Source: Okamejei kenojei (lineage: Eukaryota). Taken from it: DNA of 64,000 bases. Made by a program: the position numbers and the translations under genes. Below the pieces are notes generated by a model. That model was given only the letters and a program-made list of their open reading frames with translations. It searched no databases and had not been told where the DNA came from. The stretch covers positions 17,980,001 to 18,044,000 of the forward strand of contig CM069158.1 in NCBI GenBank assembly GCA_035221665.1, read 5' to 3'. Shown piece by piece: positions 10,327 through 59,628 of this stretch. Position 1 is the stretch's first letter; each line of letters starts with the position of its first letter.

Positions 10327-11911
10327 GTAAGTTTTACAGAACAACTGAACATGCAGCGAGACAATTCCCAAAGGTAGAATGGAGTTGCTATCCACCTCAG
10401 AATTAAATATATTAGTTGACTCCGCTAAACCGTTTTTTTCAGGAAGGGAATTTCAAAGGCGTGCGACCCTCCGAGAAAAAAAGCACATTTCTCTCACCTC
10501 TGTCTTAAATGGGTGGCGCCTGACTTAAAAACACTGAAAGAAAGGAGGAAAATTAAGAATGGGGGTGGTTGTGAGAAGGGGGAGGGGGAGGGGTATTAAA
10601 GTTGGAATAAAACTTTCTGACTGTACCAGGGGTGAATATTCTTCGATTCTCTCCCTCCGTCAGTAAACCTTCCTCATTACCATCCATTCCCTTCTTCATT
10701 CTATCCACCTGTGCCTTTACTCTACCGGCCTTTTGCTCTTACTCACCTCACTGTCTCCCTTTCTTCCCCCCCCCACCCACCACCTCCAACAACAGGCTGT
10801 GAGATTTCAGCCATTGTTTGAATTCCACTGGGTGGCGCCATCAATGGCTGCCTCGTCAATAGTCTGTCTGACCCATCCTTCCTTTTTCCTTGGGATGTGT
10901 AAAGTAGATGTTTTAACACATCCACGGAAGAATAATAAGGGAAGAAGATTAGACTTTATTGCCTTCCGTCACCGTGAGGCATGTGGGGAATCCGCTGTGG
11001 TAGATGTTATGTTAACTTTTATGTAGTTGTGTGTATTGTTGCTTCTTTTAGTAGGGCTGTATGGCGATACGACTATCACTGTACCTTAATTGGTACATGT
11101 GACAATAAAATACCTTTGAAACTTTCAATTCCTAGAGTTAACTCCGTCCACGGACGTGCAATGTGGTTGGGAAGGGGGGGGGGGGGGGGGGCAGAGGAGG
11201 CAGAGGTGCCGGAGGGATCTGGCGGGTGGGGAGAAGGAGAAGTTAGGGAGGGTGAGGATTCGGCACCTGAGAGGTGTTGATGGACTGATGAGAAACCAAT
11301 CCCCGCCCACACACCAGACGCTACAGCCTCGACAACTGGCAACCACCCACCAGCTCCGACCCTCCAGCGAGCGACTCACTAATTTCTCCTGCCCTCTCCG
11401 GCCACTCTGTCGCTAGACTTCTGTACCCGGTCATCAGCACAAAACACAAATTCGGGTTTCAACGCTTCGACCCAGTCTAGAACTCTCCCGTTTCAGATAA
11501 CCAGCCCTTCCAGTTTGTGTCAAAAGTAGTCTGTTCTGTTCAATAGCCCGCAATGTAACCTCTATTTAAACGCTCTCTGCCGATCCTGTTTGACCACCTG
11601 AATACTCCCAACCGTCGTTACATTTACCTCTTTTATTATCCTACCCAAATACCAAATGTTTTATTGTAATTTTATTATCACTATCAACCCTTCACTTGTC
11701 ATTCTTTAAAATATCCCAGCAATGGAACTTCTACCCGGTCTTCCCTGATATCCCATGTCCAAGGCTTTCCTCTCAGTTCACGGAACCAGGACACGAACCG
11801 GAGAGACGAGTCTCCTCCCTCCTCCCACCGGTGTCAGAATAGAAAGTGCTTCCAAGTTAACGACACACACACACACACACACACAGGGAAATAATTCCAA
11901 TACTGATCATC

Positions 11912-11917
11912 TTTATT
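11912..11917 (-). terminator. IgL copy 1 polyadenylation signal
   Basis: AATAAA on the minus strand at the position equivalent to 43771 in copy 2. Confidence 0.65.
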
Positions 11918-12268
11918 GGTAGTTTGTCGTCGTTGCAGACCATCGGTCTGATACTGATGAAAAATTACAAACACATTTATTATTTTGTATTAATCAGATC
12001 CATGCCTGTTGCCAGAGAAAACAATTCTTGTTGAAATTTCTGATGCAGCCAAGTTACTGACCACTTTAACCCGTGTCGCCTAGAGGTGGGAGAAACAGAA
12101 CAGCAATCGACTCGAGTACAAATGTTCCAATAACACAGTGGAAACCGAAGAAAGCGGATCGGAAGCAGGGGATACAGAGAACAGCGGGCGCACACACAGT
12201 GGGAGGAAGATGAGAGGCGGTGATCTCCCGGTAATCAAAGAGAAAACACGCCCGGAGCCGCGCTCACT

Positions 12269-12591
12269 TTAACAGCTGGATTGTGAGAGTGTGGCGGATA
12301 TTTTCGAGGCTGCTCCTTGTTGAACTGTGCAGGAGTACAACTTCCCACTGCTCCAGTCTGCGCCGGGCACCGTCAGGTAGCTGCTGAGACTGAAGGTGTT
12401 GTCCGTGTCCCGCCTCGCCGCGCTGGTTTGCACCTCACTGCCCGGCGGTCTCCCGTCCACTGTCCAGCTGACGGCGGGGAAGCCCACGGACAGTTTACTG
12501 ACCAGGCAAACTAAGGTGCCCGCTCCTTTAGCGGACATCTCCTCGTCTGACGGCCCCAGCAGTTTCACTGAAGGGTCTGGAAGATGCGAAG
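12269..12591 (-). CDS. Ig light chain (sigma-like) constant exon, copy 1
   Basis: Acceptor CCCATTGCAG; C1-set domain ASHLPDPSVKLLGPS...TLVCLVSKL...VSW...FSLSSYL...WSSGKLYSCTV...SQSSC* with terminal Cys; 323 nt. Confidence 0.93.
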
Positions 12592-13107
12592 CTGCAATGG
12601 GAACAAGGGAAGACATGTTTCAGGTGACGGAAGAGCTCGGTCATCTCCGCGTTTGACAGAAGCGCGAGTGAGAAGTTGCAGCTTCCTCTAGTGGGGCCGC
12701 GAGTCTCACTGAGGGACGGAGCGGTGCCCATGGAGGTCGCCACATGGATCAACACCGGGGAACTAGAGATGTGAGGCAACGTTCATGTTCTAGGAAAGAT
12801 GGACACAAAATGCTAGAACAGGAGACGTTTCAGGTAGGGGCCCTTCTTTACGCTGAATGTATGGGGGAAGGAACTGGAAGCAAGAAAAGACCAGCACATA
12901 GGCTAGTTCTGATTGTTGGCGAGGGACGGTGAGATCCCTGTAGCGAACTGTGGAGCTGATTATCCGACTTTTGATGGAGGAGATGCGGGGAGGTGGGGTG
13001 CGCGGTATTTTGTCCAAGTTCGCTGAGCAGCGGTTCCCGCAAAGGAGCGGCGGTCAAGGGGATAGATGGCAGGGGAGAAGAGGAAAGGCCTGGGGAACCT
13101 GGAGAGG

Positions 13108-13191
13108 GGCTTTTATTGGGCGGGTGGCTGCGGGAGAGTTCCGTCGTCACCGGGAGGATTGGAGGTTCCGTGAAATTCCGGGGGAGATTCC
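13108..13191 (-). promoter_or_regulatory. J-C intronic cluster of NF-kB-like sites plus GC/CCAAT box, copy 1
   Basis: Plus-strand GGGAGAGTTCC, GGAGGTTCC, GTGAAATTCC, GGGAGATTCC and TTTTATTGGGCGG; conserved with 42222-42303. Confidence 0.55.
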
Positions 13192-14091
13192 GCTGTGGGA
13201 TCCTCATACAATAACGTGAAACTTATAGTTCCACTGCCTCAACAACCCCGGGCTGTCTCTAGTCCTGTCCCCACTGTGAAACTGGACCCCACTTTAGGAA
13301 GCAGGGACCCCTCACGTTCACTTGGATCAAACCGGCATAAAAGCGGACGAACTAACGGGAGTAACACCGCGCAAACTCAGAGATTAAGTTAGTCTCAGAA
13401 ACACAATTTTCACAAGCACATGCAGAGACTGAGCAACTGTTCACAAAGGTAACTGATTAATTTCTGGCAATGTTGGGCTCTGCGTGGGGTGAAAGTCATC
13501 CTCAATAAGGATTGTAATATAGTTATATAGTAGTTTATTTAGTATATTTGTTTGTCTTGTATTATGGCGGTGGGTTTTGCTTTGATTTATTTCGTACTGT
13601 AAATGTTATTGTAAATAATTGATTAAGTATGTTTTGGTTCAAAAAAAGAGAACTGATTAACAGAGAGTGCACCTTTTTGAATCGAACAAGTTTCACGAAA
13701 AAGAGTAGTGTGGTTATTAAAAGACAGTGACAAAAATAGCTTAACACAACGACATTTAGCACAACTGGCGCTGGGCACAGAACTCGATTTAATTGAAAAA
13801 TCAACATCTTCTCTGTGAAATTAGCCAGGAAATAGTAAAGGTTAAAGTGTACCTATTTGAAATATCAAATAAGCTTCAAGAAATAGAGAATGTGGTCATT
13901 GAAATACAGTAGCAATTCACTGAACACAACTAGATTTATTTGAACTGGTGCTGGACACAGAACTCAAATGGATTGCAAAATAAAAATGTCTCGATAAAAT
14001 TAGCCAGATAATAATAAAGGTTAAAGTATTAGTTGCCAACTGACCGCATTCTCGCGGTTAGTAATTGCGGGATGATTTCCCAGACACTTAC

Positions 14092-14445
14092 CTGTAACAA
14101 CGAGCTTGGTCCCTGGGCCGAGCACCACAGCATTGCTCGCTGAAACCCATTTGCCGCAGTAATAGACGGCAGCGTCATTCACCTCCGCCTTGCTTATGAT
14201 CAACTGGTAAACGGTGCCGGCGCTCTTGCCTTTCGATGTGAAACGGTCGCTGCTAAACCCAGACCCGTAGGTCGGGCGGCTTGTGAGTGATAATGCCGGA
14301 GGATCCATTGAGTTGTTCCCCGGCGTCTGCTTGTACCAATTAACATATTGGCCATCATCTGTCCCGATGTTGCATTCCACCGTGGCCGTGTCCCCTGGAT
14401 TCACCGACAAGCTCGCAGGTTGAATCAGTGTCTGACACTCTCCAG
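14092..14445 (-). CDS. Ig light chain (sigma-like) germline-joined VJ exon, copy 1, with compensated frameshift in FR2/CDR2
   Basis: TTTACAG acceptor and G|GTAAGT donor; QTLIQPASLSVNPGDTATVEC...WYKQ...YGSGFSSDRFTS...DAAVYYCGKW...LGPGTKLVVT with no RSS between V and J. Confidence 0.88.
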
Positions 14446-14525
14446 CTGTAAAGTAGAAGGAATTCAATTTTAACTATTTACTATGACCCCCAAGAGCCCA
14501 CACCACACATGCCACCTGTACTTAC

Positions 14526-14571
14526 AGCCCAGCCACAGTACCAGAGACGAAATAAAGCACAGCGTTTGCAT
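14526..14571 (-). CDS. Ig light chain leader exon, copy 1
   Basis: ATG CAA ACG CTG TGC TTT ATT TCG TCT CTG GTA CTG TGG CTG GGC T|GTAAGT = MQTLCFISSLVLWLG; phase 1, in frame with the VJ exon. Confidence 0.9.
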
Positions 14572-14592
14572 CGTTGCTGCTCTCAGTTTCCT

Positions 14593-15237
14593 TTTTTTTT
14601 TCAAAGCAAATCTAAAATTTACAGGCTTTATTAAACAATGAGAAATCGAATCTCACCAACACTACATAATACGTGGCTAAACGTATGCTTTAAACTAAGG
14701 CTATGGAAAGAAAATTATCGGCACGTGGTAAAAACTTACTTTACACAATTTTAATTAATTACAGATGCACCCCCCTTCCCCCTTCTTCTCTCAACCTCTA
14801 TCCTATTTCAGGAACTTCACCAAGACATCTGGGAGTACTTACAGCTAGATTTTTTTTTAAAATTTCAAAATATACTTTATTCAAATGATAAATATATACA
14901 ATACGTTAACCTTGCGGAAAATCCATCCGACATTTTCGGGGGCTGTACAAATTGATGAATTCAGTTTAGACATTTCTTTTCCCCAAATTTCCACAAATCA
15001 GTCCCCCACTCTTGCCACTCATGTGGCACAATGGCGTGGGATACCTTCCCTTATTTTGAGGGGCGTCTCCACCATACGTGCCCCCCATGTCCAGCGGCGG
15101 AAGGGCCTTAGACAGTGGCCCTCCCCCACCGAGCCTTGGCGTTGGCTGCACCGAGCTTCAGTGCGTCCCTCAGCACGTACTCATGCAGTCTGCAGCGGGC
15201 CAGTCGGCAACATTCCCTGACGGACATCTGGCTCTGC
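14593..15237 (-). mobile_element. 5'-truncated Tx1/L1-clade LINE with apparent 3' transduction, inserted in the IgL copy 1 5'UTR
   Basis: ORF2 end QSQMSVRECCRLARCRLHEYVLRDALKLGAANAKARWGRATV* (stop 15108-15110); two AATAAA+polyA ends (14850 and 14593); TTCCT duplication at 14588-14592 and 15238-15242; absent from copy 2. Confidence 0.8.
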
Positions 15238-21462: not shown

Positions 21463-21912
21463 TCCATTTCAAGCAGAGTGCAAGTCCACCAAATTCAAAT
21501 CCATTTTCCTACCATTTCAAGCAGGGTGCAAGGCCACCAAATTCAAGTGCAGTTTCTTACCTCTTCGAACAGGGTGCAAGGCCACAGAATTCAAGTGCAC
21601 TTTCTTACCTCTGCGGGCAGGGTGCAAGGCCACAGAATTCAAATGCAGTTTCATACCACTTCAAGCAGGGTGCAAGGCCACCAAATTCAGGTTCAGTTTC
21701 CTTCCACTTCAAGCAGGGTGCAAGGCCACTGAATTCAAGTGCAGTTTCCAACCACTTCAAGCAGGGTGCAAGGTCACCAAATTCAAGTGCAGTTTCATAC
21801 CACTTCAGGCAGGGAGCAAGGCCACCAAATTCAAGTGCAATTTCATACCATTTCAAGGAGGGTGCAAGGCCATCACATTCAAATGCAGTTTCATACCATT
21901 TCAAGCAGGGTG
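21463..21912. repeat. 48-bp minisatellite, ~9 copies
   Basis: Unit CCATTTCAAGCAGGGTGCAAGGCCACCAAATTCAAGTGCAGTTTCATA. Confidence 0.92.
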
Positions 21913-22310
21913 AAACCACCATAAAAACCACCACAAAACACCACACTCACAGTTCAGTAGACATTCAGTGTGTTCAGTTGATTCACAGCTCAGACAGAGT
22001 CGTGACCTTTCCCTCCCCCATCATGCAGAGACTGAGCATGATGGGTGAGGGAAAAACCCACACTTCCGGGTTTTATAATCCCTCCCCCTCCCACTGGAAA
22101 AGGTGCGACCTTATTGGCATGATTGACAGGAGAGAGATTCTCAACATTATTTAAACACTAATAACACTTTTGTTTTTCATCTATGGGAAGAATCCTCTGC
22201 ACCTGATAAGTGGAGGGGGACTGAGTAAGATGGCCAAAAATCACAGCCGTAAGTGGTAGCGTTTTATCTAAAATCAATATAGTGCAAACAGAAAGTTGTC
22301 AAGTTTAGCC

Positions 22311-23357
22311 AAACAACCATTTGCAGGCAGTGCCTTTTCACATCAACCCAAACCCCCCAAACAACCATTTGCAGGCAATGCCTTTTCATTTCAACCCAAA
22401 CCCCCCAAACAACCATTTGCAGGCAGTGCCTTTTCATTTCAACCCAAACCCCCCAAATAACCATTTGCAGGCAGTGCCTTTTCACTTCAACCCAAACCCC
22501 CAAAACAACCATTTGCAGGCAGTGCCTTTTCACTTCAACCCAAACCACTGAAGAAGGGTCTCGACCCGAAACGTCGCCTATCTCCTTCGCTCCTTAGATG
22601 CTGCTGCACCCGCTGAGTTTCTCCAGCTTTTTGTGTACCCACCCAAGCAACCATTTGCAGGCAGTGCCTTTTCACTTCATCCCAAACCCCCCAAACAACC
22701 ATTTGCAGGCAGTGCCTTTTCACTTCAACCCAAACCCCCCAAACAACCATTTGCAGGCAGTGCCTTTTTACTTCAACCCAAACAACCATTTGCAGGCAGT
22801 GCCTTTTTACTTCAACCCAAACAACCACTTGCAGGCAGTGCCTTTTCACTTCAACCCAAACAACCATTTGCAAGCAGTGCCTTTTCACTTCAACCCAAAC
22901 CCCCCAAACAACCATTTGCAGGCAGTGCCTTTTCACTTCAACCCAAACAACCATTTGCAGGCAGTGCCTTTTCATCTTCAACCCAAACAACCATTTGCAG
23001 GCAGTGCCTTTTCACTTCAACCCAAACAACCATTTGCAGGCAGTGCCTTTTCACTTCAACCCAAACAACCATTTGCAGGCAGTGCCTTTTCACTTCAACC
23101 CAAACCCTCCAAACAACCATTTGCAGGCAGTGCCTTTTCACTTCAACCCAAGCAACCGTTTGCAGGCAGTGCCTTTTCACTTCAACCCAAAAAACCATTT
23201 GCAAGCAGTGCCTTTTCACTTCAACCCGAACAACCATTTGCAGGCAGTGCCTTTTCACTTCAACCCAAACAAGCATTTGCAGGCAGTGCCTTTTTACTTC
23301 AACCCAAACCCCCCAAACAACCATTTGCAGGCAGTGCCTTTTTACTTCAAACCAACC
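22311..23357. repeat. 39/48-bp minisatellite, ~22 units, interrupted at 22548-22638
   Basis: Unit AAACAACCATTTGCAGGCAGTGCCTTTTCACTTCAACCC with optional AAACCCCCC. Confidence 0.92.
22548..22638 (+). mobile_element. Short Penelope-associated-type repeat with intact hammerhead-like core, inserted in the satellite
   Basis: CTGAAGA-AGGGTCTCGACCC-GAAACGTC at 22548-22575. Confidence 0.7.
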
Positions 23358-41119: not shown

Positions 41120-41167
41120 CCGCCCTGATTTGCACGGATTTCCTTTCTGTGTCAATGGCTCTATAAG
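41120..41167 (+). promoter_or_regulatory. IgL copy 2 promoter (GC box, decamer/octamer variant, TATA)
   Basis: CCGCCC 41120, TGATTTGCAC 41126-41135, TATAAG 41162-41167, about 80 nt upstream of the ATG. Confidence 0.8.
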
Positions 41168-41242: not shown

Positions 41243-41288
41243 ATGCAAACGCTGTACCTTTTCTGGTCTCTGGCACTGTGGCTGAGCT
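41243..41288 (+). CDS. Ig light chain leader exon, copy 2
   Basis: MQTLYLFWSLALWLS + T|GTAAGT; hydrophobic signal peptide, phase 1. Confidence 0.92.
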
Positions 41289-41392
41289 GTAAGTACAGGG
41301 CTGCAAGTCAGCCTTGCCAGCGGGTGTGATGTGGGATCTTGGGGTCACATTAAAGAGTCAATGGTTAAAATTTAATTATTTCTACTTTACAG

Positions 41393-41749
41393 CTGGAGAG
41401 TGTCAGACTGTAACCCAACCTGCGAGCTTGTCGGTGAATCCAGGGGACACGGCCACGCTGGAATGCAATGTCGGAATAAAGGATACCGGATATTCTTATT
41501 GGTACAAACAGATACCGGGAACCACTCCTCAATGGATCCTCCGGTATTATCACGGACACGACGCCCCGACCTATGGGTCTGGGTTTAGCAGCGACCGTTT
41601 CACATCGAAAGCCAACAGCGCCGCCACCGTTTACCAGTTGATCATAAGCAAGGCGGAGGTGAATGACGCTGCCGTCTATTACTGTATGAAATGGTTTCCA
41701 GCGAACAGTATTTTCATGTTCGGCCCAGGGACCAAGCTCTTTGTTACAG
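41393..41749 (+). CDS. Ig light chain (sigma-like) germline-joined VJ exon, copy 2, intact
   Basis: (S)GEC-QTVTQPASLSVNPGDTATLECNVGIKDTGYSYWYKQIPGTTPQWILRYYHGHDAPTYGSGFSSDRFTS...DAAVYYCMKWFPANSIFMFGPGTKLFVT; long CDR2 with YGSGFSS typical of sigma; canonical splice sites; no RSS. Confidence 0.95.
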
Positions 41750-42221
41750 GTAAGTATCTGGGAAATCATCCCGCAATTACTAACCGCGAGAATACGGTCA
41801 GTTGGCAAGTAATACTTTAACCTTTATTATTATCTGGCTAATTTTATCGATAAATTTTTATTTTGCAATCCATTTGAGTCCTGTGTCCAGCACCAGTTCA
41901 AATAAATATAGTTGTGTTCAGTGAATTGTTACTGTATTTTAATGACCACATTCTCTATTTCGTGAAGCTTATTTGATATTTCAAAAAGGTACACTCTCGG
42001 TTAATCAATTCGCTTTGTGGTGTTGTTGCTCTGTCTCTGCATGTGCTTGTGAATACTGTGTTTCTGATACTAGTTTGTCCGCGTTGTGCAAGTGAACGTG
42101 AGGGGTCCCAGCTTCCTAAAGTGGGGTCCGGTTTCACAGTGGGGACAGGACTAGAGACAGCCCGGGGTTGTTGAGGCAGTGGAACTATAAGCTTCACGTT
42201 ATTGTATGAGGATCCCACAGC

Positions 42222-42437
42222 GGAATCTCCCCCGGAATTTCACGGAAACTCCAATCCTCCCGGTGACGACGGAACTCTCCTGCAGCCACCCGCCCAATAA
42301 AAGCCCCTCTCCCGTTCCCCAGTCCTTGCCTCCTCTCCTGCCATCTCTCCCCTTGACCGCCGCTCCTTTGCGGGAACCATTGCCGTCGCTGCACCGACTG
42401 AGTCGGAGCTCCGGGTCTGGGGAGAATCGCACCTGCC
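42222..42437 (+). promoter_or_regulatory. J-C intronic NF-kB site cluster plus E2-box, copy 2
   Basis: GGAATCTCCC, GGAATTTCAC, GGAAACTCCA, GGAACTCTCC, CCGCCCAATAAAAG; CACCTGCC at 42430-42437. Confidence 0.55.
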
Positions 42438-43121
42438 CTCCCCCACAGTGAATGGGACCCGTCACAGGTCACAGAGCGACCCGCCCTGTCCAGCTCCGTG
42501 AAGCTCAGCACGGCGCAGCCGCTGTCCTCGCCCGCTTGGAGAATTTGAGATGTGTTTGTTCTCCCGGCAGCAGCGAGGGGCACATCACTCAGTGAGTGGG
42601 AACATTCAACTGACCCGGGGTCGCCTCTGGTCGCGGCGTGTGGCTCGGCTCCGTTCATGACTCGGTGCCGGAAAGCCTCACCAGTTGGAGTAGATTCCCC
42701 GCCGGCACTCGTTGGTCCCAGAGCGAGGGGTCACTGGTTGGCGGTCGGTAGTGGGATCACGGATCCCTCCCCTCACTAACCAGAGGCACTGAGGCCGTGA
42801 AGCCTCACTGTGGGACTCTCCCGCAATCAGCTCATGTGCACAGGCCGCGGTAAACCTGGGAGTGGAGGTGAGGTGACCGAGCGTCTGATGCTGTGAACCA
42901 GCGAGTTACCAGCAGGACCCTAAAACAGAAACGTTGCCTCACATCTCTAGTTCCCCGGCGTTGATCCATGCGGCGACCTCCATGGGCACCGCTCCGTCCC
43001 TCAGTGAGACTCGCGGCCCCACTAGAGGAAGCTGCAACTTCTCACTTGCGCTTCTGTCAAACGCGGAGATGACCGAGCTCTTCCGTCACCTGAAACATGT
43101 CTTCTCTTCTTCCCATTGCAG

Positions 43122-43444
43122 ACTCGCATCTTCCAGACCCTTCAGTGAAACTGCTGGGGCCGTCAGACGAGGAGATGTCCGCTGAAGGAGCGGGCACCTT
43201 AGTTTGCCTGGTCAGTAAACTGTCCATGGGCTTCCCCGCCGTCAGCTGGACAGTGGACGGGAGACCGCCGGGCAGTGAGGTGCAAACCAGCGCGGTGAGG
43301 CGGGACACGGACAACACCTTCAGTCTCAGCAGCTACCTGAAGGTGCCCGGCGCAGACTGGAGCAGTGGGAAGTTGTACTCCTGCACAGTTCAACAAGGAG
43401 CAGCCTCGAAAATATCCGCCACAGTCTCACAATCCAGCTGTTAA
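43122..43444 (+). CDS. Ig light chain (sigma-like) constant exon, copy 2
   Basis: CCCATTGCAG acceptor; DSHLPDPSVKLLGPS...LVCLV...W...YSCTV...SQSSC*; spliced leader+VJ+C = 726 nt, 241 aa, fully open. Confidence 0.95.
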
Positions 43445-43770
43445 AGTCAGCGGGGCTCCGGGCGTGTTTTCTATTTGATTACCGGGAGATCACTGCCTCT
43501 CATCTTCCTCCCACTGTGTGTGCGCCCGCTGTTCTCTGTATCCCCTGCTTCCGATCCGCGTTCTCCGGTTTCCACTGTGTTATTGGAACATTTGTGCTCG
43601 AATTGATTGTTCTGTTTCTTTCACCGTTAGGCGACACGGGTTAAAGTGGTCAGTAACTTGGCTTCATCAGAAATTGTTTTCTCAGGCAACAGACATGGAT
43701 GTTATTAAGAAAAGCGTTTGTAATTCTTCATCTGTATCAGACTGACTATCTGCAACTACGTCAAACTACC

Positions 43771-43776
43771 AATAAA
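43771..43776 (+). terminator. IgL copy 2 polyadenylation signal
   Basis: AATAAA ~330 nt after the stop, conserved in copy 1, followed by a GT-rich tract. Confidence 0.7.
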
Positions 43777-45439
43777 AATGATCAATGCAGGAATTATTTA
43801 CGTGTGTGTCTCGTTATCTTGGGATCTCTTCCCATTCTGGCGCCAGATGGGAGGAGGGTGGTCTCGTCTGTCTGCGCTCCTTTGCAGCATCTTTAGACAT
43901 GGGATATCAGGGAAGAACGGCGGGAAGATCCGTTGCTGGGGTACTGAAAAGAATAGGGACAGGGTAATTGGAAGGCAGTGATGATAAGATTATAACAAGA
44001 CATTTAATGTTTGGGAACGATAATAAAGAAAGTAAATTTGCTGGAAATATTCAAGTGGTCAGGCCGCACCTGTGAAGAACTTTAAAACCTAAGTTACATT
44101 GCGGGCAACGACCTTTCACCAGAATTGACCAATTCAGACACAAACTGCAATGGCTGGTTATTTGAAGTGGTTACAATATAGGCTAGGTGCCGAGTTTAGT
44201 TCACGTTACACATTCCCCTTTCTCTCTCTGTCATGACCAGGAGAACTATTTGTGCAGTTCAGAGGCTGCAATGTAAAGTGGAGGGGGACTGTATAATTAA
44301 AAACATGGAAAGAATTTACGTAGCATGCAAAACACAGACGGTGCAGCACAGAAGTTAAATTGAATCGTTGTCGGGGGATCGCAGCTGGCGGGTGTTTGCC
44401 TGTTGCCGAGGCTGCAGCCTCTGGTATGTGAGAGGGTGAGCGGGGCTGGGATTCTTAGCAGTTCATCATCGTCCCTCCGCTGCTCACTGAGCGCGCCTCC
44501 ATCATTTTCTTTGCAGTGCACCCGCCCCCAAATGCACTGCTTCTCGGTTTCAGTTCCAGTTTCAACTTTCTTGGGCCGAAGACTTGTTCTCGTTTAGATT
44601 TTCTCTACTCCCACGAAGCAGACAGAGCACCACCACCGCAGCTGGGAGAGTATTTCTTCCTTGGGGCGGTCGGCATATATCAATCCCGTTCTGCATTTTA
44701 AATAATGGGTGAATCCCTGCTGCCTTCTGCCTTATTGAAAGCGACAGCGGAATTGACGGGAGAAGGATGGAGGAATTGAGAGGGGAAGGGAGGATGGGAA
44801 GGAGGAAGAGCGGGGAGACAAACTGAGGAGTGAGTCACAGCCCAGCGGATGGAAAGGTGGGCAAGGAAGGAGTTGGAAGGCCATAGGGATGGGGGGCCGA
44901 GGGAGGAGGGGTAGAGTGAGATTCAGACGGACGATCTTCTCCTTCCCTATTTCTCACAACCCTCCTTCCTCAATTGTCAACACTCGCGAGGCCGAATATT
45001 GGTTCCTGGGTCAATGGGTCTTGAAACCACATTGTAGCCAGGTCCATAGTTGAAAGTTTGGACCGAAGCAAGACGCCCCATGGGAAGGGCAGCCACACTT
45101 CCTGTCCTCGGGTTCAGATTTATTCCATTGTGAAATTTTGGCCAATGCTTTATCAACACACTGGAGGTAAAATAGAGCTGGTGTACGATTTGATAATTTT
45201 TATTGCTCTGAACATTGGGCTTACTGAACTGTGCTTGGAGATTTACCGAGTCAGTTGGGAAGGAAATATTTGCATAAATTATCCACCATATATCATGGTT
45301 GCACACATGACAATACCCTCCTTGTATATATGTTTTTACACGTGCTTGCATTTCGCGAGCACATGTACCTTCAGGTGTACCCTCAGGTCAAGCACGTTAT
45401 TTGCCAGTATAATGTGGCCTTTGGTATTCCACGCTCCAG

Positions 45440-47025: not shown

Positions 47026-50000
47026 TTCCGGTGGCGCTATGGAGTGAGTGGAACTCGCGCCATTCAGCTCCGCTAAAAATTGTATTTAAAACATGGGTAA
47101 AGGGGGTTAAGTGAAGCTACTCACCAGAGGAGAACGGGTGTGAACATCTCTGGTAGCGTTAAAAAGGTGCGTGACGTCATCAGGTGCACGACTTTAACAA
47201 GACAATGTCGATGCATCGCCCCCTCCCCCACCAAGTGAAAAAGCCTGTGAAAAAGGAAGTAGGCCTCACTGGAGCCTCAGGCTCGAGTTTGAGTGCCTCC
47301 CAGGAAGATATTTTAAAGATGGATGACCTCAAAAAAATTATTATGGATGAGCTAAAAAAAATGCTTAAGGATATGAAAAAAGAATATAAAGAAGAAATAA
47401 AGACTTTAAGAAATCATATTTTGGTGTATCATGAAAATTTGAAAGAAGAGTTCAAAAAAGAAGTTATAACTACTGTAAAGACTATGATGGACGAATGGAA
47501 AGATAAAGCGGGTACACTTTGAATTTTGGGATAAACCACAAAAGTTACCGCACGCCAGCTTAGAAAATTAGATGAGGAGAAAATGATACATAAAATTAGA
47601 TCTGAACAAGGAGAAATATTGACTTTACCAAAAGATATCAATGATACATTTTCACAATATTATCAAAATCTTTACTCATCTAAACTAGCAGGACAACCAG
47701 ATGGAATGGAAACATTCCTACAAGAATGTCATATTAATAGTTGGAATCAGGAAGGTAGAGACTTGTTAAATTCTGATATATCAGTAAAAGATATTGAAGA
47801 ATCAATTGGATCATTAAATAACGGAAAAGCCGCAGGCCCTGATGGCTTAAGTGTTGAATTTTATAAGTTTTATGATCTGATCTCTCCACGTTTACATATA
47901 ATATATAAATATGCTTATGAGCAAGGAAAGTTACCAGAATCATTAAATGAATCTACAATTGCACTTATCCCTAAAGCTGATAAAGATTTGGAAGACCCTG
48001 GGTCATACAGGGCAATAGCTCTTTTAAACACTGATCAAAAAATACTAACTAAAATTTTATCTCGGAGGCTAAGTTTAGTGATTAATAACTTAATACATCA
48101 TGACCAAACAGGTTTCATCCCAAAACGCTACTCATCTTATAATCTGAGACGTCTATTCAATATCATATACTCAAAAAGAGTGAATGATATTGAACTAGCT
48201 GTCATATCCTTAGATGCTGAAAAAGCATTTGACCATGTTGAATGGCCATTTTTATTTAAAATAGTGCAGAAATTTCAACTGGGGGATAGATTTTCCAAAT
48301 GGGTAAAAATCATATACTCGAATCCAACTGCAAGAATATTAACAAATCAAATGTTATCAGCAATAATCTTTATTTCTTTAGGGGTTGTAGACAAGGATGC
48401 CCATTATCACCATTCCTATTTGCTCTGGTAATAGAACCATTAGCCGAAATGATTAGATCAGAACCAGAAATATATGGATATAATACCAAAACTACAACGA
48501 ATAAAATATCTCTATACGCAGATGACATCTTAATTTATATCACAAAACCGGAGATTAGTATTCCTAATCTATTTAATGTTATAACTAAGTTTGGCACATT
48601 TTCTGGGTATAGAATTAACTGGAATAAAAGTGAAATTATGCCTATAACTGGAATAAAATCAAATATACTAGAACAATCCCCACTTAAAATAGTCACGGAC
48701 AAATTTAAATATCATTTTTAATTACAAATTTATACATATACAAATTTAAGTTATATAGGAATTAATGTATCTAAATCCTATAACTGTCTATTTAAATATA
48801 ATTACCCTCAATTGTTAAATAAACTAAAAAAAAAAAAAATTATATTGGAAAACACTACCTATTTCAATGATCGGTAGAATAAATGCTATAAAAATGATTC
48901 TTTTGCCACAATTGTTATATTTATTTCAAGCCATCCCTTTATATCTCCCTAAAATGTTTTTTTTTTAAAAAGATACTTTGGGGTTAATAGTTTTATTTGG
49001 GACTATAAATATCATCGAATAAGTAAAAAACATCTATGTAAATCTAAAATAAATGGTGGACTAGCACTACCAAATTTCTTATATTATTTCTGGGCAGTTC
49101 AGATTAAAAATATGAATTTTTGGTTGGTAAACTTAGATTATGAGCCAAACTGGCTAAAGATGGAAAAGGAAGACTGTTTGCCTTTTGAAGTAGGTTCGAT
49201 TCTTTTTGCACCAAGGGAAGTACAAAAAAAAACGTATGGTGATAACCCTATAATTCATAGCAATAGACATATTTGGAAACACTTAGTTAAGACCCTACAT
49301 ATGGATAATCTGTCACTTTGTTTGCCAATTATGAATAATCCTTTGTTTAAGCCCTCTGTATTGGACAAGGGGTTTAGACACTGGAATGCTTTAGGAATTA
49401 TAAGGATAGAACATCTTTACAAGAAAGGAACATTTCTTTCATTTCAAGAGTTGCAGGATATCTATGGATTGCAGTCAAATAACATATTTAGGTATTTACA
49501 AATTAGAAACTATTTTAAGTCAAATACACAAGACTATAAAAATAGAAAACCAGGATTATTAGATGAATTGTTTAATAAACACCCAAATACAGAAAAATTA
49601 ATAGCGTATATATACAATACTATCTTGGATAGGGAAATCCCAACTTCGGAAATATATCGACAAACATGGGAAAATGAAATAGGTTTATCTATAACGAAGG
49701 AAACTTGGGAAGAAAGCCTACAATGTATACATCGTCGTTCATTAAATGCTAGACATATATTGATGCAATTTAAGGTATTACACAGATTACATTATTCAAA
49801 AACGAAATTAAATAGAATTTATTCTACCATTTCTTCTATTTGTGATAAATGTCAGAACTTGGAAGCTAACTTAATGCATAGTTTTGTAACATGTATAAAA
49901 CTCAACTATTATTGGGCAGAAATCTTTAGAGTTATCTCTGAAGTTCTTAAAATTAAACTGGACCCAGATCCAAAATTAATAATATTAGGAGTTCCGGATT

Positions 50001-50647
50001 CAAATCTAATATTAACAGTAAACCAAAGAAATTTCTTGGATTACTGTTTGATAATAGGGAAAAAATTAATATTGAAATTTTGGAAGGGAACATTATCCCC
50101 CACAATTAAAATGTGGACAGTGGAAATGTTGGAGACATTGCATTTGGAAAGAATCAGATTTGTCCTAATGGACAAATACGAACTCTTTGAACAGATATGG
50201 TCTCCATATACAGAATATTTGAAGGGATAGCTGTTCTTGGCATCACAACTCAATGGGTACCTGGCAGGATTAGATGAAAATAATAATTATATATTTTTTT
50301 GGATTTGTATGCATGTATCTATTGATATCGTTATTTGAAATGGTGTTATTCACTATTAAGATGAATAATATATACTATAATCTTTTTTTTTTCTTTTTTT
50401 CTTTTTTTCTCTTCTCTTTCTCTCTCTATATAATCAAAATTATTATTTAATCACCATTCTTATTGATTAAAATCTATTCTTTTCTTTCTAAAAAATACTT
50501 TCTACTTTCTACTTTCTAAAAAATAGAAGTTTATAAGAATTATTTGTAACATCCGTATACTTATTGAAATAAGTTGGTTGTGTATTTGAAAAGTTGTTAT
50601 ACCGTTGTTATGATGGATTACTTCTAATAAAAATATTATTAAAAAAA
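47026..50647 (+). mobile_element. L1-clade LINE, internally deleted (5'UTR and start of ORF1 fused to post-endonuclease ORF2)
   Basis: 15-bp TSD AGAATTGCCAAGCAC (47011-47025, 50648-50662); RT motifs KAAGPDG, YRAIALLNTD, SLDAEKAFD, RGCRQGCPLSP, YADD; C-terminal CDKC...H...C; AATAAA and A-tail; several frameshifts. Confidence 0.93.
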
Positions 50648-52521: not shown

Positions 52522-52549
52522 AGTTTTTGTTTTACCTTCTCTCACTCCG
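52522..52549 (-). other. Degenerate recombination signal sequence (12-bp spacer)
   Basis: Minus strand CGGAGTG (5/7 heptamer) + AGAGAAGGTAAA (12 nt) + ACAAAAACT (8/9 nonamer), immediately after YYCTKWFS. Confidence 0.7.
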
Positions 52550-52790
52550 ATGAAAACCACTTCGTACAGTAATAGACGGCAACGTAATTCACCTTCGCCT
52601 TGTTTATGATCAACTCGTAAACGGCGGGGGAGCTGTTGAACCGCAAGGAAAAACGGCCGCTGTTCAACTCAGACCCGTAGCTTGGGCCAGTCCAGGTATG
52701 ATGGTTAGAGACAATGCATTACGCATTCGTCCGTGTCTCCTGGATTCACCGACACGGCCACAGGTTGAGTTCGTGTCTGAAACTCCCCAG
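52550..52790 (-). pseudogene. Unjoined Ig sigma-like V pseudogene segment
   Basis: TTTTACAG acceptor; QTRTQPVAVSVNPGDT..(CDR1-FR2 deleted)..PSYGSELNSGRFS...VYELIINKAKVNYVAVYYCTKWFS; no leader, J or C attached. Confidence 0.85.
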
Positions 52791-53672
52791 CTGTAAAAGA
52801 GCAGGAATTCAACTTTAACCATTGATTGACTCTTTAATGCGAACTCAACAGCCCACATCACATGAAAGTTTATACAAGTTGCGGGAAATCGATGTCACAG
52901 TCTCTCCCCCCCCCCCCCCCCCACCCCGGAATAGTAGGGTCTGATACAAGAGGTCATAGATTTAAGGTGAGAGGTGAAAAATGTAAAGGAGACATGAGGG
53001 GTAGTCACGTATTCCCAGACACAGTGGTGAGTATATGGATCGAGCTGCAAGAGGAGATCGTATCGGTGATAGAATTACAACCGTTGAAAAAGCATTTGGA
53101 TAAGTACATGGGTGGGAAATATGTAAAGGGATATAGATCAAATGCAGGAAAATGGGAAATCAGGAATCTTGGTTGACATGGAAAATTCAGGTTAAATTGT
53201 CAGTTTGGTGCTGTTTAATTAACTAAATCTATGATCTCAGTCCAAATGTGAGGACGAACTTTGGTCTTAGTTAAGATATTCTGTCGGACAGACCAAAACA
53301 CTCGATGGGAGCTCATTAATCTTTGAGGGGAGGACACATTCCATCTTCCGGACTGCGTCCAATTTTCAGGCCCACACGAAGGCCATCGGAAATGGTCCAG
53401 CAATCTAGAAAGTATCTGCAACCATCGATAAGACGAGCTGTTGGAGGTGTGAGGAGCATCTCCGGACTGAGGGATGGAGTGTGGCAACAACTGAATCAGG
53501 AAAATGGAGGGAGAAGGTGGGGAATATCAGAAAACAAACGACCATTGTGTCAACGGGTTGTGTTTACCAGGTCTGTCAGTGGCTGACATTGTCACCGCCT
53601 CAACCCGACTGTGTCTGATGGCGAATGGGACGGTTTCAGAACTGCGCTCTGGTCGCTCGGTGTGACCCACCC

Positions 53673-53714
53673 TGATTTGCACGGATTTCCTCCCTGTGTG
53701 AATGGCTCTATAAG
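53673..53714 (+). promoter_or_regulatory. IgL copy 3 promoter remnant
   Basis: TGATTTGCAC 53673-53682 and TATAAG 53709-53714. Confidence 0.7.
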
Positions 53715-53781
53715 TGGGACCCATCGGCAGCGGCGTCTGTTACAGCGGCTGGAGTGAGGCGGGGAGCTGGAGGTAGCAACC

Positions 53782-54940
53782 AGGCGAACGCTGCGCTTTT
53801 TCTGATCTCTGGCAGTGGCTGGGCTGTACATACAGTCGGCAAGTCTACCCCGCCAGCGGTTGTGATGTGGGCTCTTGGGGTCACATTAAAGAGTCATTGG
53901 TTAAAGTTCAATTCCTGCTCTTTTACAGCTGGGGAGTGTCAGACTCTGACTCAACCTGCGACCGTGTCGGTGAATCCAGGAGACACGGCCACATTGATAT
54001 GTTGCATCGATATAAAGCATGGCAATTATGTTCATTAGTTTAAGCATTCACCGGGAACAAATCCTCAGCGGGTCCTCCATTACTCAAGTTCACAAGTTCA
54101 TAGAAAAATAGGTGCAGGAGGAGGCCATTAGGCCCTTTGAGCCAGCACATCCTTTCATCTAAAATCAGTGCACGTTATATGAGTAGAATTAGGCCATTCG
54201 GTCCATCGAGTCCACTACGCCATTCAATTATGGCTGACCTCTGCCTCCTAATCGCATTTTCCTGCCTTCTCCTCATAACCCTTCACTCCCGTTCTAATCA
54301 AGAATTTGTCTATCTTCACCTTAAAAATATCAATTGAATTGGCCTCTGTAGCCTTCTGTGACAAAGAATCCCACAGATTCACCAACCTCTTATTTTTCAC
54401 CCTCAGAAATTTCTCCTCATCTCCTTCCTAAAATAACTTCCTTTAATTCTGAGCCTATGACCTCTAGTTCTAGACTCTCCCACTAGTGGAAACACCCTCT
54501 CCACATCCACTCTATCCAAGCCTTTCACTATTCTACGTTTCAATGAGGTCCCCCCTCAAACTTCAAAACTCCAGCGAGCAGAGGCCCAGTGCTGTCAAAC
54601 GCTCAACATATGCTAACCCACTCATTCATGGAATCATTTTTGTAAACCTCCTCTGGACCCTCTCCAGAGCCAGCACGTCCTTCCTCAGATATGGGGTCCA
54701 GATTTGCTCACAGTACTCCAAATGCGGCCTGACCAGCGCCTTATAGAGCCTCAGCATTACATCTCTGTTTTTTTTTGTATTCCTGTCCTCTTGATATAAA
54801 TGCTAGCATTGAATTTGCCTTCCTTACTACCGATTCGACTTCCAAATTAACTTTTTGGGAGTCCTGAACCAAGTACCTTTGCACCTCCGATTACTGGATT
54901 CTCTGGATCGAGTTGATGGATGTTCGGACCAGGGACCAAG
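53782..54940 (+). pseudogene. Ig sigma-like copy 3: dead leader and VJ-joined exon disrupted by CR1
   Basis: Leader lacks the ATG and has a TGA; V 53929-54085 (QTLTQPATVSVNPGDTATLIC, conserved Trp changed to TAG); after the CR1, TAC TGG ATT CTC TGG...TTC GGA CCA GGG ACC AAG (FGPGTK) with the donor deleted. Confidence 0.85.
54086..54890 (-). mobile_element. CR1 3' fragment(s) inside IgL copy 3 V
   Basis: Same subfamily as 39388-39960 ([33 protein letters not shown]). Confidence 0.88.
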
Positions 54941-56211
54941 TGTATGGGAAATCCTTTCGACTCGGTCCTGATGCAGTATCCGGATCGGAAGAATTGTTTC
55001 CTCAATTCTCTCCGCAGATGCTGCTTGCCTCGCCCATTTGAACCAGCAGTTTTATTTTGCTGCTGATTAGATTTTTTAAAATATCTATCTACACACACAC
55101 TCACCCACACACTCCCACTCACCCCTCCCCCTATCCTCTCAGTTTTCGCTGTTAATGAGGACATGGATTAAATGTTAACACAGATACGCTGATTATTGTC
55201 TATCCGCTGATATCAATTATGTGTAAATCATGTGTAAATCATCTAATAATTTGCTCTTTATTAGTGGTGTGTTTTCTCATCCATTAGTGTTGACCCTTCT
55301 TTCCGCTACTAAATGTAGTTATTGCAAGATTCTAAAACCTCTGTCAATTTAAGGCTACGTGTTCGCCGGAGGCCAAACAGTAATAAGTTTCAGCCCAGTG
55401 GCCGGAAGATTCTTTCTGCCATTTCTAAGCGTTAATATGGTTAGCGCTTGTTAACAATTGTTCACTCAGTTTGGGTTCTTTCATTGCGTCCGACTAATGG
55501 TATTTTTGTATTGAAATGCTGATTACACTTGGCAGTGTTTTCCGTCCCGCTCTTGTTCACTCGGTGCGGCCGTGTTACTTGCTATCGAATGTTATTACCA
55601 CAGTTAATGAGAATAAAACCCCCCACAAATGCTAGAAATATCAAATCAATGCTGCAAATACTGCAAGCATGTGGAAAGAGAAACGATTGTCGTGTCAGTT
55701 TCTAGACTCTACGACTCCGACCTGAAACGTTAATTCTGTAGCATTTTTAGCTGAGAAAGAACAATGTTCCTGCTTCTCCTGCTTTATCACTAAATATCTG
55801 GGAATTTTGCTTCGGTTTTTTAACATGCAATAAATGTTCTGTGTTGCTAATTTTGCACTGGCTGTTAATTAGTTTCTACTATTATGGTGATAAGTGCTGG
55901 ATTATTCTTTGCTCCAGTTGAAGTAACTAATTCTGTCGTTTTATGTTCACATGCGCAGTGACGTTGCAATGCGATTATCACCTTCCTTAAAATACTTTTG
56001 CTGGTGTTTTGAACAGTTGATGTAGACCATCTGGAATTATTTTCCAAGGCTGAATGGAGAGCGTGCTGAATTAATTTATGTGGTTAATTTGCAGTTTATG
56101 CCCTCAACGCTACTACTTCTCGAGCCGTCCTGTTGGTTTCATTGTTGTATCTATTCGTTGTCACCCTTTTCCAACGGTCACAAAACATGGTCTCCAACTT
56201 TCCTCGATCAT

Positions 56212-58855: not shown

Positions 58856-59196
58856 AGTGTGTTATTCATTTCCTTAACTTTCGTGTCAGCTTTCTACCAA
58901 AAATCTTTTCTTGGCACACGGCCCGTCTTCAGTTTTTACCTCTCTCCCACCCTCGGTTGGGGTGAGGTGGGGCGAGGAAACAAGCCCTCGGGTTGATGAG
59001 AACCACGCTTGTAAAGAATAAAATTAAAAAACGGATCCCCAAAGAATAAGTGCAAGTCAAATTTGTAATGCTTCTGTCTTGACAAGGTCTCCGTCAGCTG
59101 AAAGGAACGAGGCCCTGTCACTCATTTTTTAGGAGGCAGCCCCACCCCCCCCCCCCCCCCCACACACTTAAACATGTCATCTCTTGTCCCTTGCAG

Positions 59197-59515
59197 CTCC
59201 GCAGCTCCCCGGCCCTTCAGTGAAACTGCTGTGCCCATCAGACTAGGAGATGTTCGCTAAAGGAGCGGGCACCTTTGCTTGGTCAGTAAACTGTCCGTGG
59301 GCTTCCCCACCATCAGCTGGGCAGTGGCCGGGAGTCCGCTGAGCAGTGAGGTGCAAACCAGCGCAGTGAGGCACGACACGGACAACACCTTCAGTCTCAG
59401 CATCTACCTGACGGTGCGCGGCACAGACAAGAGTAGTGAGAAGTTGTACTCCTGCACAGTTCAACAAGGAGCAGCCTCGAAAATATCCACCACAATCTCA
59501 CAATCCAGCTGTTAA
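59197..59515 (+). pseudogene. Ig sigma-like constant exon, copy 3 (pseudogene)
   Basis: TTGCAG acceptor; homologous to 43122-43444 but with a TAG after PSD and a 4-nt deletion near TLVCL; ends SKISTTISQSSC*. Confidence 0.9.
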
Positions 59516-59628
59516 AGTGAGCGTGGCTCCAGGCGTGTTTGCACCCTGATTAACGGGAAGTCACTGCTTCTCATCTTTCACTGCGTTGCATCTTTTTGCC
59601 ACCCACCCCTCTCAGTTCATTGAACCAT

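Follow-up and report, generated by a model that had tools for sequence, protein, structure and literature searches.

Four clustered kB-type sites as a candidate Rel-responsive enhancer in the J-C intron of a skate IgL sigma gene with germline-joined V and J

Four kB-type sites lie within 60 bp in the J-C intron of an intact immunoglobulin light-chain (IgL) sigma gene of Okamejei kenojei, in which V and J are already joined in the germline. The cluster is real, statistically unusual and non-random, and it could make the sigma gene signal-inducible. We give an even chance to the hypothesis that the block is a homotypic Rel/NF-kB-responsive intronic enhancer, which would be analogous to the mammalian iE-kappa by position only. 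The analysis covers a 64-kb stretch of genomic DNA (the window), which contains four related Ig light-chain copies; the cluster belongs to copy 2, and copy 1 carries a paralogous block (Table 1).

Table 1. Features of IgL copies 1 and 2, with positions counted from the first nucleotide of the window
Feature	Position	Strand	Remarks
IgL copy 1	12269-14578	-	paralogous gene
Paralogous block, copy 1	13032-13324	-	kB sites at 13182, 13170, 13160, 13133
LINE 3' end insert, copy 1 5' UTR	14578-15232	sense	655 bp, between promoter and leader
V promoter, copy 2	41120-41167	+	GC box 41120, octamer variant ATTTGCAC 41128, TATAAG 41162
IgL sigma gene copy 2, intact	41243-43444	+	leader, V-J exon, intron, C
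Leader exon, copy 2	41243-41288	+	intact IgL sigma gene
Germline-joined VJ exon, copy 2	41393-41749	+	V and J already joined in genomic sequence
J-C intron, copy 2	41750-43121	+	1372 nt; AT-rich 5' part, GC-rich from about 42080
Left arm, imperfect inverted repeat	42076-42215	+	ends 6 bp before site 1
Shared segment, copy 2	42089-42378	+	equals 13324-13032 in copy 1, 95.6%; contains left inverted-repeat arm, kB cluster, pyrimidine tract
kB site 1	42222-42231	-	GGAATCTCCC, reads GGGAGATTCC on -; 0 mismatches; MATCH 0.816
kB-like site 2	42234-42243	-	GGAATTTCAC, reads GTGAAATTCC on -; 1 mismatch; MATCH 0.795
kB-like site 3	42244-42253	-	GGAAACTCCA, reads TGGAGTTTCC on -; 1 mismatch; MATCH 0.851
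kB-like site 4	42271-42280	-	GGAACTCTCC, reads GGAGAGTTCC on -; 1 mismatch; MATCH 0.753
GC box, TATA-like/poly(A)-like and initiator-like motifs	42290-42325	+	GC box 42290, AATAAAAG 42296, CCAGTCC 42319; consensus matches only
E-box CAGGTG, copy 2 only	42430-42435	-	outside shared segment, 150 bp from cluster
Fifth kB match, copy 2 only	42812-42821	+	GGGACTCTCC; perfect consensus; MATCH 0.904
Right arm, inverted repeat	42915-43069	-	ends about 50 bp before splice acceptor
C sigma exon to stop codon, copy 2	43122-43444	+	alignment to P0029 in text

The host gene

The V region of copy 2 aligns without gaps to that of the nurse shark IgL sigma chain P0029 (72/116 identical, with equal CDR1 and CDR2 lengths), and the C region is identical at 83/104 positions. 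These pairwise alignments to a named sigma chain, rather than an isotype tree, support the sigma label that an earlier note on this DNA had proposed. A protein search limited to similar lengths with a cut-off of 1e-25 returned nothing, and a search admitting longer lengths gave skate matches, P0003 and P0004 (Rhinoraja, Amblyraja), with 86-87% identity to the V region of copy 2. A PDB search confirmed an Ig V domain and nothing further. The V-promoter elements in Table 1 are named after motifs that we take to be a GC box, an octamer variant and a TATA box.

V and J are contiguous in the genomic sequence and the cluster lies inside the J-C intron, both as described earlier. The joined state applies to the V-J exons of both copy 2 and copy 1 (14091-14443). 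In the sections available, reviews give germline joining in skates for sigma-2 and lambda only, and are silent on skate sigma. The polypyrimidine tract (43097-43121) contains, in both copy 1 and copy 2, an ATG (MSSLLPIADSHL...) in frame with C, from which a leaderless C domain could be translated if the RNA stays unspliced. Two further sigma genes, copies 3 and 4, are broken (52548-52862, 53444-54078, 54918-55604 and 59167-59577); in copy 4, J-like relics remain at about 54920 and about 55356, and the intron is heavily invaded by repeats.

The four sites form a non-random cluster

All four sites were found where the earlier note had placed them. Mismatches were counted against GGGRNWYYCC, which we take to be the kB consensus, and a looser variant (GGGRNNYYCC) and the broadest published pattern (RGGRNNHHYYB) were used as well. 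The earlier note had missed a second perfect match, located further downstream in the intron (42812). The four clustered sites are on the same strand, with spacings of 12, 10 and 27 bp between successive sites; all start with CGGAA, and any two units have 6-9 of 11 bases in common. The cluster likely grew by local micro-duplication of an 11-bp CGGAA unit.

With GGGRNWYYCC and up to one mismatch, the block is the only 60-bp cluster of four sites in the whole window. A scan against shuffled intron background had been suggested before; in dinucleotide shuffles, four non-overlapping sites within 60 bp were reached in 0/4000 cases for the intron, 0/4000 for its GC-rich part and 1/4000 for the shared segment, and in 1/150 locally shuffled whole windows, p-values that overstate the case because duplication makes the four sites non-independent. 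The looser consensus gave 6/4000, 12/4000 and 8/4000 for the same three sequences and 3/150 for whole windows, and with RGGRNNHHYYB at one mismatch the block merely ties with many other places. When the columns of the motif were permuted and the real sequence was kept, 1/1500 permuted motifs gave such a cluster in the intron (a shifted form, over the same block) and 3/1500 anywhere in the masked window; for the permuted looser consensus the counts were 8/1500 and 25/1500.

The shared strand, the invariant CGGAA start and the similarity of the units are also what would be expected if the block were a functionless by-product, either a degenerate micro-tandem repeat or a promoter remnant of an old transposon or LTR, that has been kept alike in the two genes by gene conversion. 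We regard this explanation as somewhat unlikely. A motif-free search for repeated 11-mers, in which tandem arrays, copy 1 and the N gap were masked, yielded 40 loci with at least three similar units within 60 bp, among which the kB block alone has four units and alone is kB-like (0-1 mismatches per unit, versus 3-8 at the other loci). Neutral duplication thus does not predict a kB-like unit, and the single locus that has one is situated in an Ig intron.

Predicted Rel binding

All four native 11-mers are within the computed list of 4,399 canonical NF-kB binders in the available part of PMC3218832, where membership reflects a register-dependent model score and not a measurement. The MATCH scores are mid-range (0.753-0.851). 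Among the probes of the binding array in the accessible data of the same source, there were no matches to the exact site sequences, and the nearest measured probes bind the RelA homodimer (CGGAATTTCCT, z 3.70; AGGAAACTCCT, z 2.04; GGAAACTCCCC, z 3.23). For near neighbours of sites 2 and 3, the z-scores are 3.70 and 2.04 with the RelA homodimer and 1.20 and -0.10 with RelA-p50, and binding is modest for the probes closest to site 1 (z 0.5-1.1; PMC3218832, same part). In these comparisons the four sites resemble RelA-homodimer sites. The accessible text of PMC3630861 describes the DNA preference of NF-kB as conserved from sea anemone to human, and the binding preference should therefore carry over to skate.

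Because CGGAA is invariant in 4/4 units, ETS-family factors might instead read the four CGGAA cores, in which case the kB resemblance would be incidental. The block is the top CGGAA cluster of the window, and the kB consensus does not require the fifth base: 9 of 130 one-mismatch kB matches end in TTCCG. However, none of the four units fits MGGAWG, presumably the ETS core, and the bases that follow GGAA retain the second kB half-site in all four, which makes reading by ETS factors very unlikely in our view.

Comparison of copies 1 and 2

The core of the block has a near-identical counterpart in copy 1 (84/86), as reported earlier, but it is not special in this respect: comparable identities are seen directly upstream (126/129), in the C exon (316/321) and in the 5' and 3' intron (223/233 and 195/203, respectively), and the core is not better conserved than the motif-free shared patches (Fisher p=0.76). 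The accompanying statement that neighbouring intron sequence was replaced holds for the 3' neighbour; upstream, 130 bp are as well conserved as the core. In favour of an enhancer, the shared segment has persisted as an island between DNA that is non-homologous in the two copies. The promoter, V and 3' UTR are about 85% identical (promoters 86%), and the core differs less than the promoter (2/86 versus 41/316 differences, p=0.003), a comparison that is confounded by homogenisation.

The C exons have 0 differences at about 78 (77.8) synonymous sites, with five amino-acid-changing and no silent differences, and 3' flank identity falls from 96% to about 70% over a distance of 600 bp (comparison of 43122-44166 with 11492-12591). 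The similarity of the two copies points to recent homogenisation, by patchy gene conversion or concerted evolution. Since homogenisation explains the similarity, conservation between the paralogs, which had been put forward as a sign of function, is no evidence of it, and the homogenisation itself fits the by-product explanation. Each of the two differences in the core touches a kB site, either inside it or at its border. One change weakens site 3 in copy 1, where the 11-mer drops off the binder list; the MATCH score of site 4 rises from 0.753 in copy 2 to 0.798 in copy 1.

Copy 1, the only other carrier of the block, is probably impaired, judging from a LINE insertion and a compensated frameshift, which counts against the enhancer hypothesis. 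The insert ends in AATAAA and an A run and encodes the C-terminus of a LINE ORF2 (best match P0058, RVT_1 + zf-RVT, 90%); it provides copy 1 with upstream ATGs and a poly(A) signal. In the V region (about 14290-14315) a compensated 2-nt plus 1-nt deletion scrambles FR2/CDR2, such that the PQWILRYY stretch is replaced by an out-of-frame peptide, as a real lesion or an assembly error. The AT-rich 5' intron of copy 1 contains an old tandem duplication (13645-14027) of an about 180-bp unit, with 75% identity, of which copy 2 has a single hybrid unit.

An inverted repeat brackets the block

The arms of the imperfect inverted repeat are identical at 91/140 positions, a score that 0/1000 shuffles reach (nhmmer E=0.0015), and their ends are undefined. 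A scan of 308 pairs of windows with similar spacing gave a higher score at one other place. The repeat is present in both copies (copy 1 arms at about 13200-13335 and 12647-12795), where it spans most of the GC-rich intron and encloses different interiors, as non-autonomous DNA elements do. It may represent old transposon ends, an inverted duplication or a stem that aids splicing, and the 140-nt repeat around the block is the main support for the putative transposon origin within the by-product explanation. The order of kB sites, GC box and TATA-like run resembles that of LTR U3 regions, in which kB sites are followed by a GC box and then by TATA, and would suit an LTR relic.

Absence of the block from the older, broken copy 4 also agrees with a by-product: the intron of copy 4 has no relic of the kB block or of the arms (core, 45/100 and 41/100 shuffles). 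Against it, searches for a target-site duplication beside the arms gave only scattered 5-6-mers, although a duplication could have decayed, and nhmmer detected no third copy of the block beyond the two genes in 64 kb, which is a weak argument, given how little of the genome the window represents.

Several other origins of these sequences were tried and rejected. The arms are not decayed copies of the C exon, as 92/500, 232/500 and 87/500 shuffles reach the scores and the HMM E-value is at least 0.47. The arms pair in folding (z -8.5 sense, -7.3 antisense), but a selected RNA stem is unsupported, with no consistent G.U bias between the copies: G.U-type to A.C-type mismatches are 13:11 in copy 2 (p 0.42) and 19:9 in copy 1 (p 0.04), ratios that depend on the alignment settings. 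The block as a homologue of the V promoter, V exon, C exon or copy-specific segments scored at best 14/500, which is not significant.

Other motifs in the intron

CCAAT (42251 and 42294), TGACG (42264), CCGCCCAATAAAAG (42290) and CACCTGCC (42430) all occur where they had been listed. CCAAT and TGACG, described earlier as interleaved with the kB sites, have background frequency (160 and 50 occurrences in the window); the CCAATs of the block fit no NF-Y consensus and TGACG fits no full CRE consensus. The CpG-rich stretch towards the C exon is not a local feature either, because the richness spans the whole gene (CpG observed/expected 0.79 in both copies and 0.97 in the V exon, versus 0.46 in the window). 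As for the kE2 sequence assigned to copy 2, the window has CAGGTGCG and not the 8-mer CAGGTGGC that the available part of Inlay 2004 gives for kE2 (PMC2211861), and copy 1 is without that segment. The E-box is missing from the shared block and from copy 1, and the link to iE-kappa that had been based on it falls away.

Neither CAGGTGGC nor CATCTGGC (kE1/kE2 E-boxes) is present in the intron of copy 1 or copy 2, and the shared block is devoid of octamer, MEF2, ETS-IRF and E2A-type E-box motifs, which sets it apart from the Ig light-chain enhancers known so far. The intron holds three CACAGTG/CACTGTG heptamers and no nonamer recognisable by eye. An Rfam search gave one chance match (E 0.98), and a bacterial promoter scan, irrelevant to skate DNA, gave none.

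The motifs that follow the cluster might also be read as an inducible internal promoter, in which the four kB sites, the GC box, AATAAAAG and an initiator near 42321 would drive a sterile or C-only transcript. The run AATAAAAG agrees at 7 of 8 positions with what we assume to be the TATA consensus and lies about 25 bp before CCAGTCC; the surroundings are CpG-rich, and splice-donor-like sites are found at 42592 and 43004. However, AATAAA occurs 130 times in the window, a background frequency, and doubles as a poly(A) signal; the initiator-like CCAGTCC is altered in copy 1, where the match is lost, and neither CCAAT fits NF-Y. A pre-joined gene would, moreover, need no germline transcript for rearrangement, and the review PMC5192425 (section 5.1, of the part available) places promoters of cartilaginous fish IgL genes only at V segments. 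We consider an internal promoter improbable.

A model for a Rel-responsive intronic enhancer

We hypothesize that the block would act as an enhancer in activated B cells, raising the output of the V promoter about 1060 bp upstream. Once the antigen receptor or innate pathways signal, dimers of the RelA or c-Rel type would occupy the four sites cooperatively and, together with a GC-box factor, would act on the V promoter with its octamer and TATA elements. Because V and J are already joined, the output would be activation-linked transcription, and possibly the targeting of hypermutation, not the opening of the locus for rearrangement. We infer all steps of this model that go beyond the sequence pattern. 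In a more far-reaching version, the block would be part of an elasmobranch-wide sigma Rel module, an ancient relative of iE-kappa that makes the pre-joined chain signal-inducible and so substitutes for rearrangement as the on-switch; we rate this version as quite improbable.

Like iE-kappa, the skate block lies in the intron between J and C of a light-chain gene, adjoins an AT-rich stretch, precedes C by 600-900 bp and has the kB consensus (site 1 perfect, three near). In the parts of PMC2211861 and PMC3972084 available, iE-kappa combines a single kB site with three to five E-boxes, whereas the skate block has four kB-like sites and no E2A-type box in its shared part, and its host gene is V-J joined, with nothing to rearrange. 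For rearrangement in mice, the kE1/kE2 E-boxes of iE-kappa are needed and kB is dispensable, according to the same part of PMC2211861. The kB motif is not diagnostic of iE-kappa, since kB sites also occur in the lambda and 3' kappa enhancers (PMC3972084, part available). We infer analogy to iE-kappa rather than demonstrated homology.

Homotypic modules of kB, Sp1 and TATA elements are known from inducible promoters and from the U3 region of retroviral LTRs. The skate block likewise has several kB sites, then a GC box and a TATA-like AT run, but it is intronic, and the window contains no LTR termini, target-site duplication or dispersed copies. With the chicken and mammalian Ig lambda enhancers and other DIVAC elements, which target hypermutation, it has in common a kB motif in an element of a light-chain gene. 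Those elements sit 3' of C and are heterotypic (E-box, kB, MEF2, PU.1-IRF4), in contrast to the skate block, which is without MEF2 and ETS-IRF motifs. In the chicken lambda enhancer the kB motif is required for the targeting of hypermutation, according to the available part of PMC3972084.

A 60-bp element with four mutable sites offers a small, directly testable enhancer candidate for studying how cartilaginous fish activate, exclude and mutate pre-joined Ig genes in which no rearrangement takes place. Conservation in sharks as well as in kappa introns would date the control of antibody genes by NF-kB to early jawed vertebrates; a skate-specific block would mean that the same logic was assembled independently. 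The literature searched contained no light-chain enhancer of a cartilaginous fish, in the J-C intron or elsewhere, with older papers thinly covered and novelty accordingly unproven, and a search for cod light-chain enhancers gave no result.

Outside the intron, long reverse-transcriptase-like ORFs (47535-50230, plus strand) appear LINE-like from translation alone, and minisatellite arrays with 39-48-bp units occupy 21464-21912 and 22309-23357. The sole perfect octamer of the 64 kb, ATTTGCAT, lies at 45268-45275, 1.8 kb 3' of the C exon of copy 2, and is a candidate 3' enhancer.
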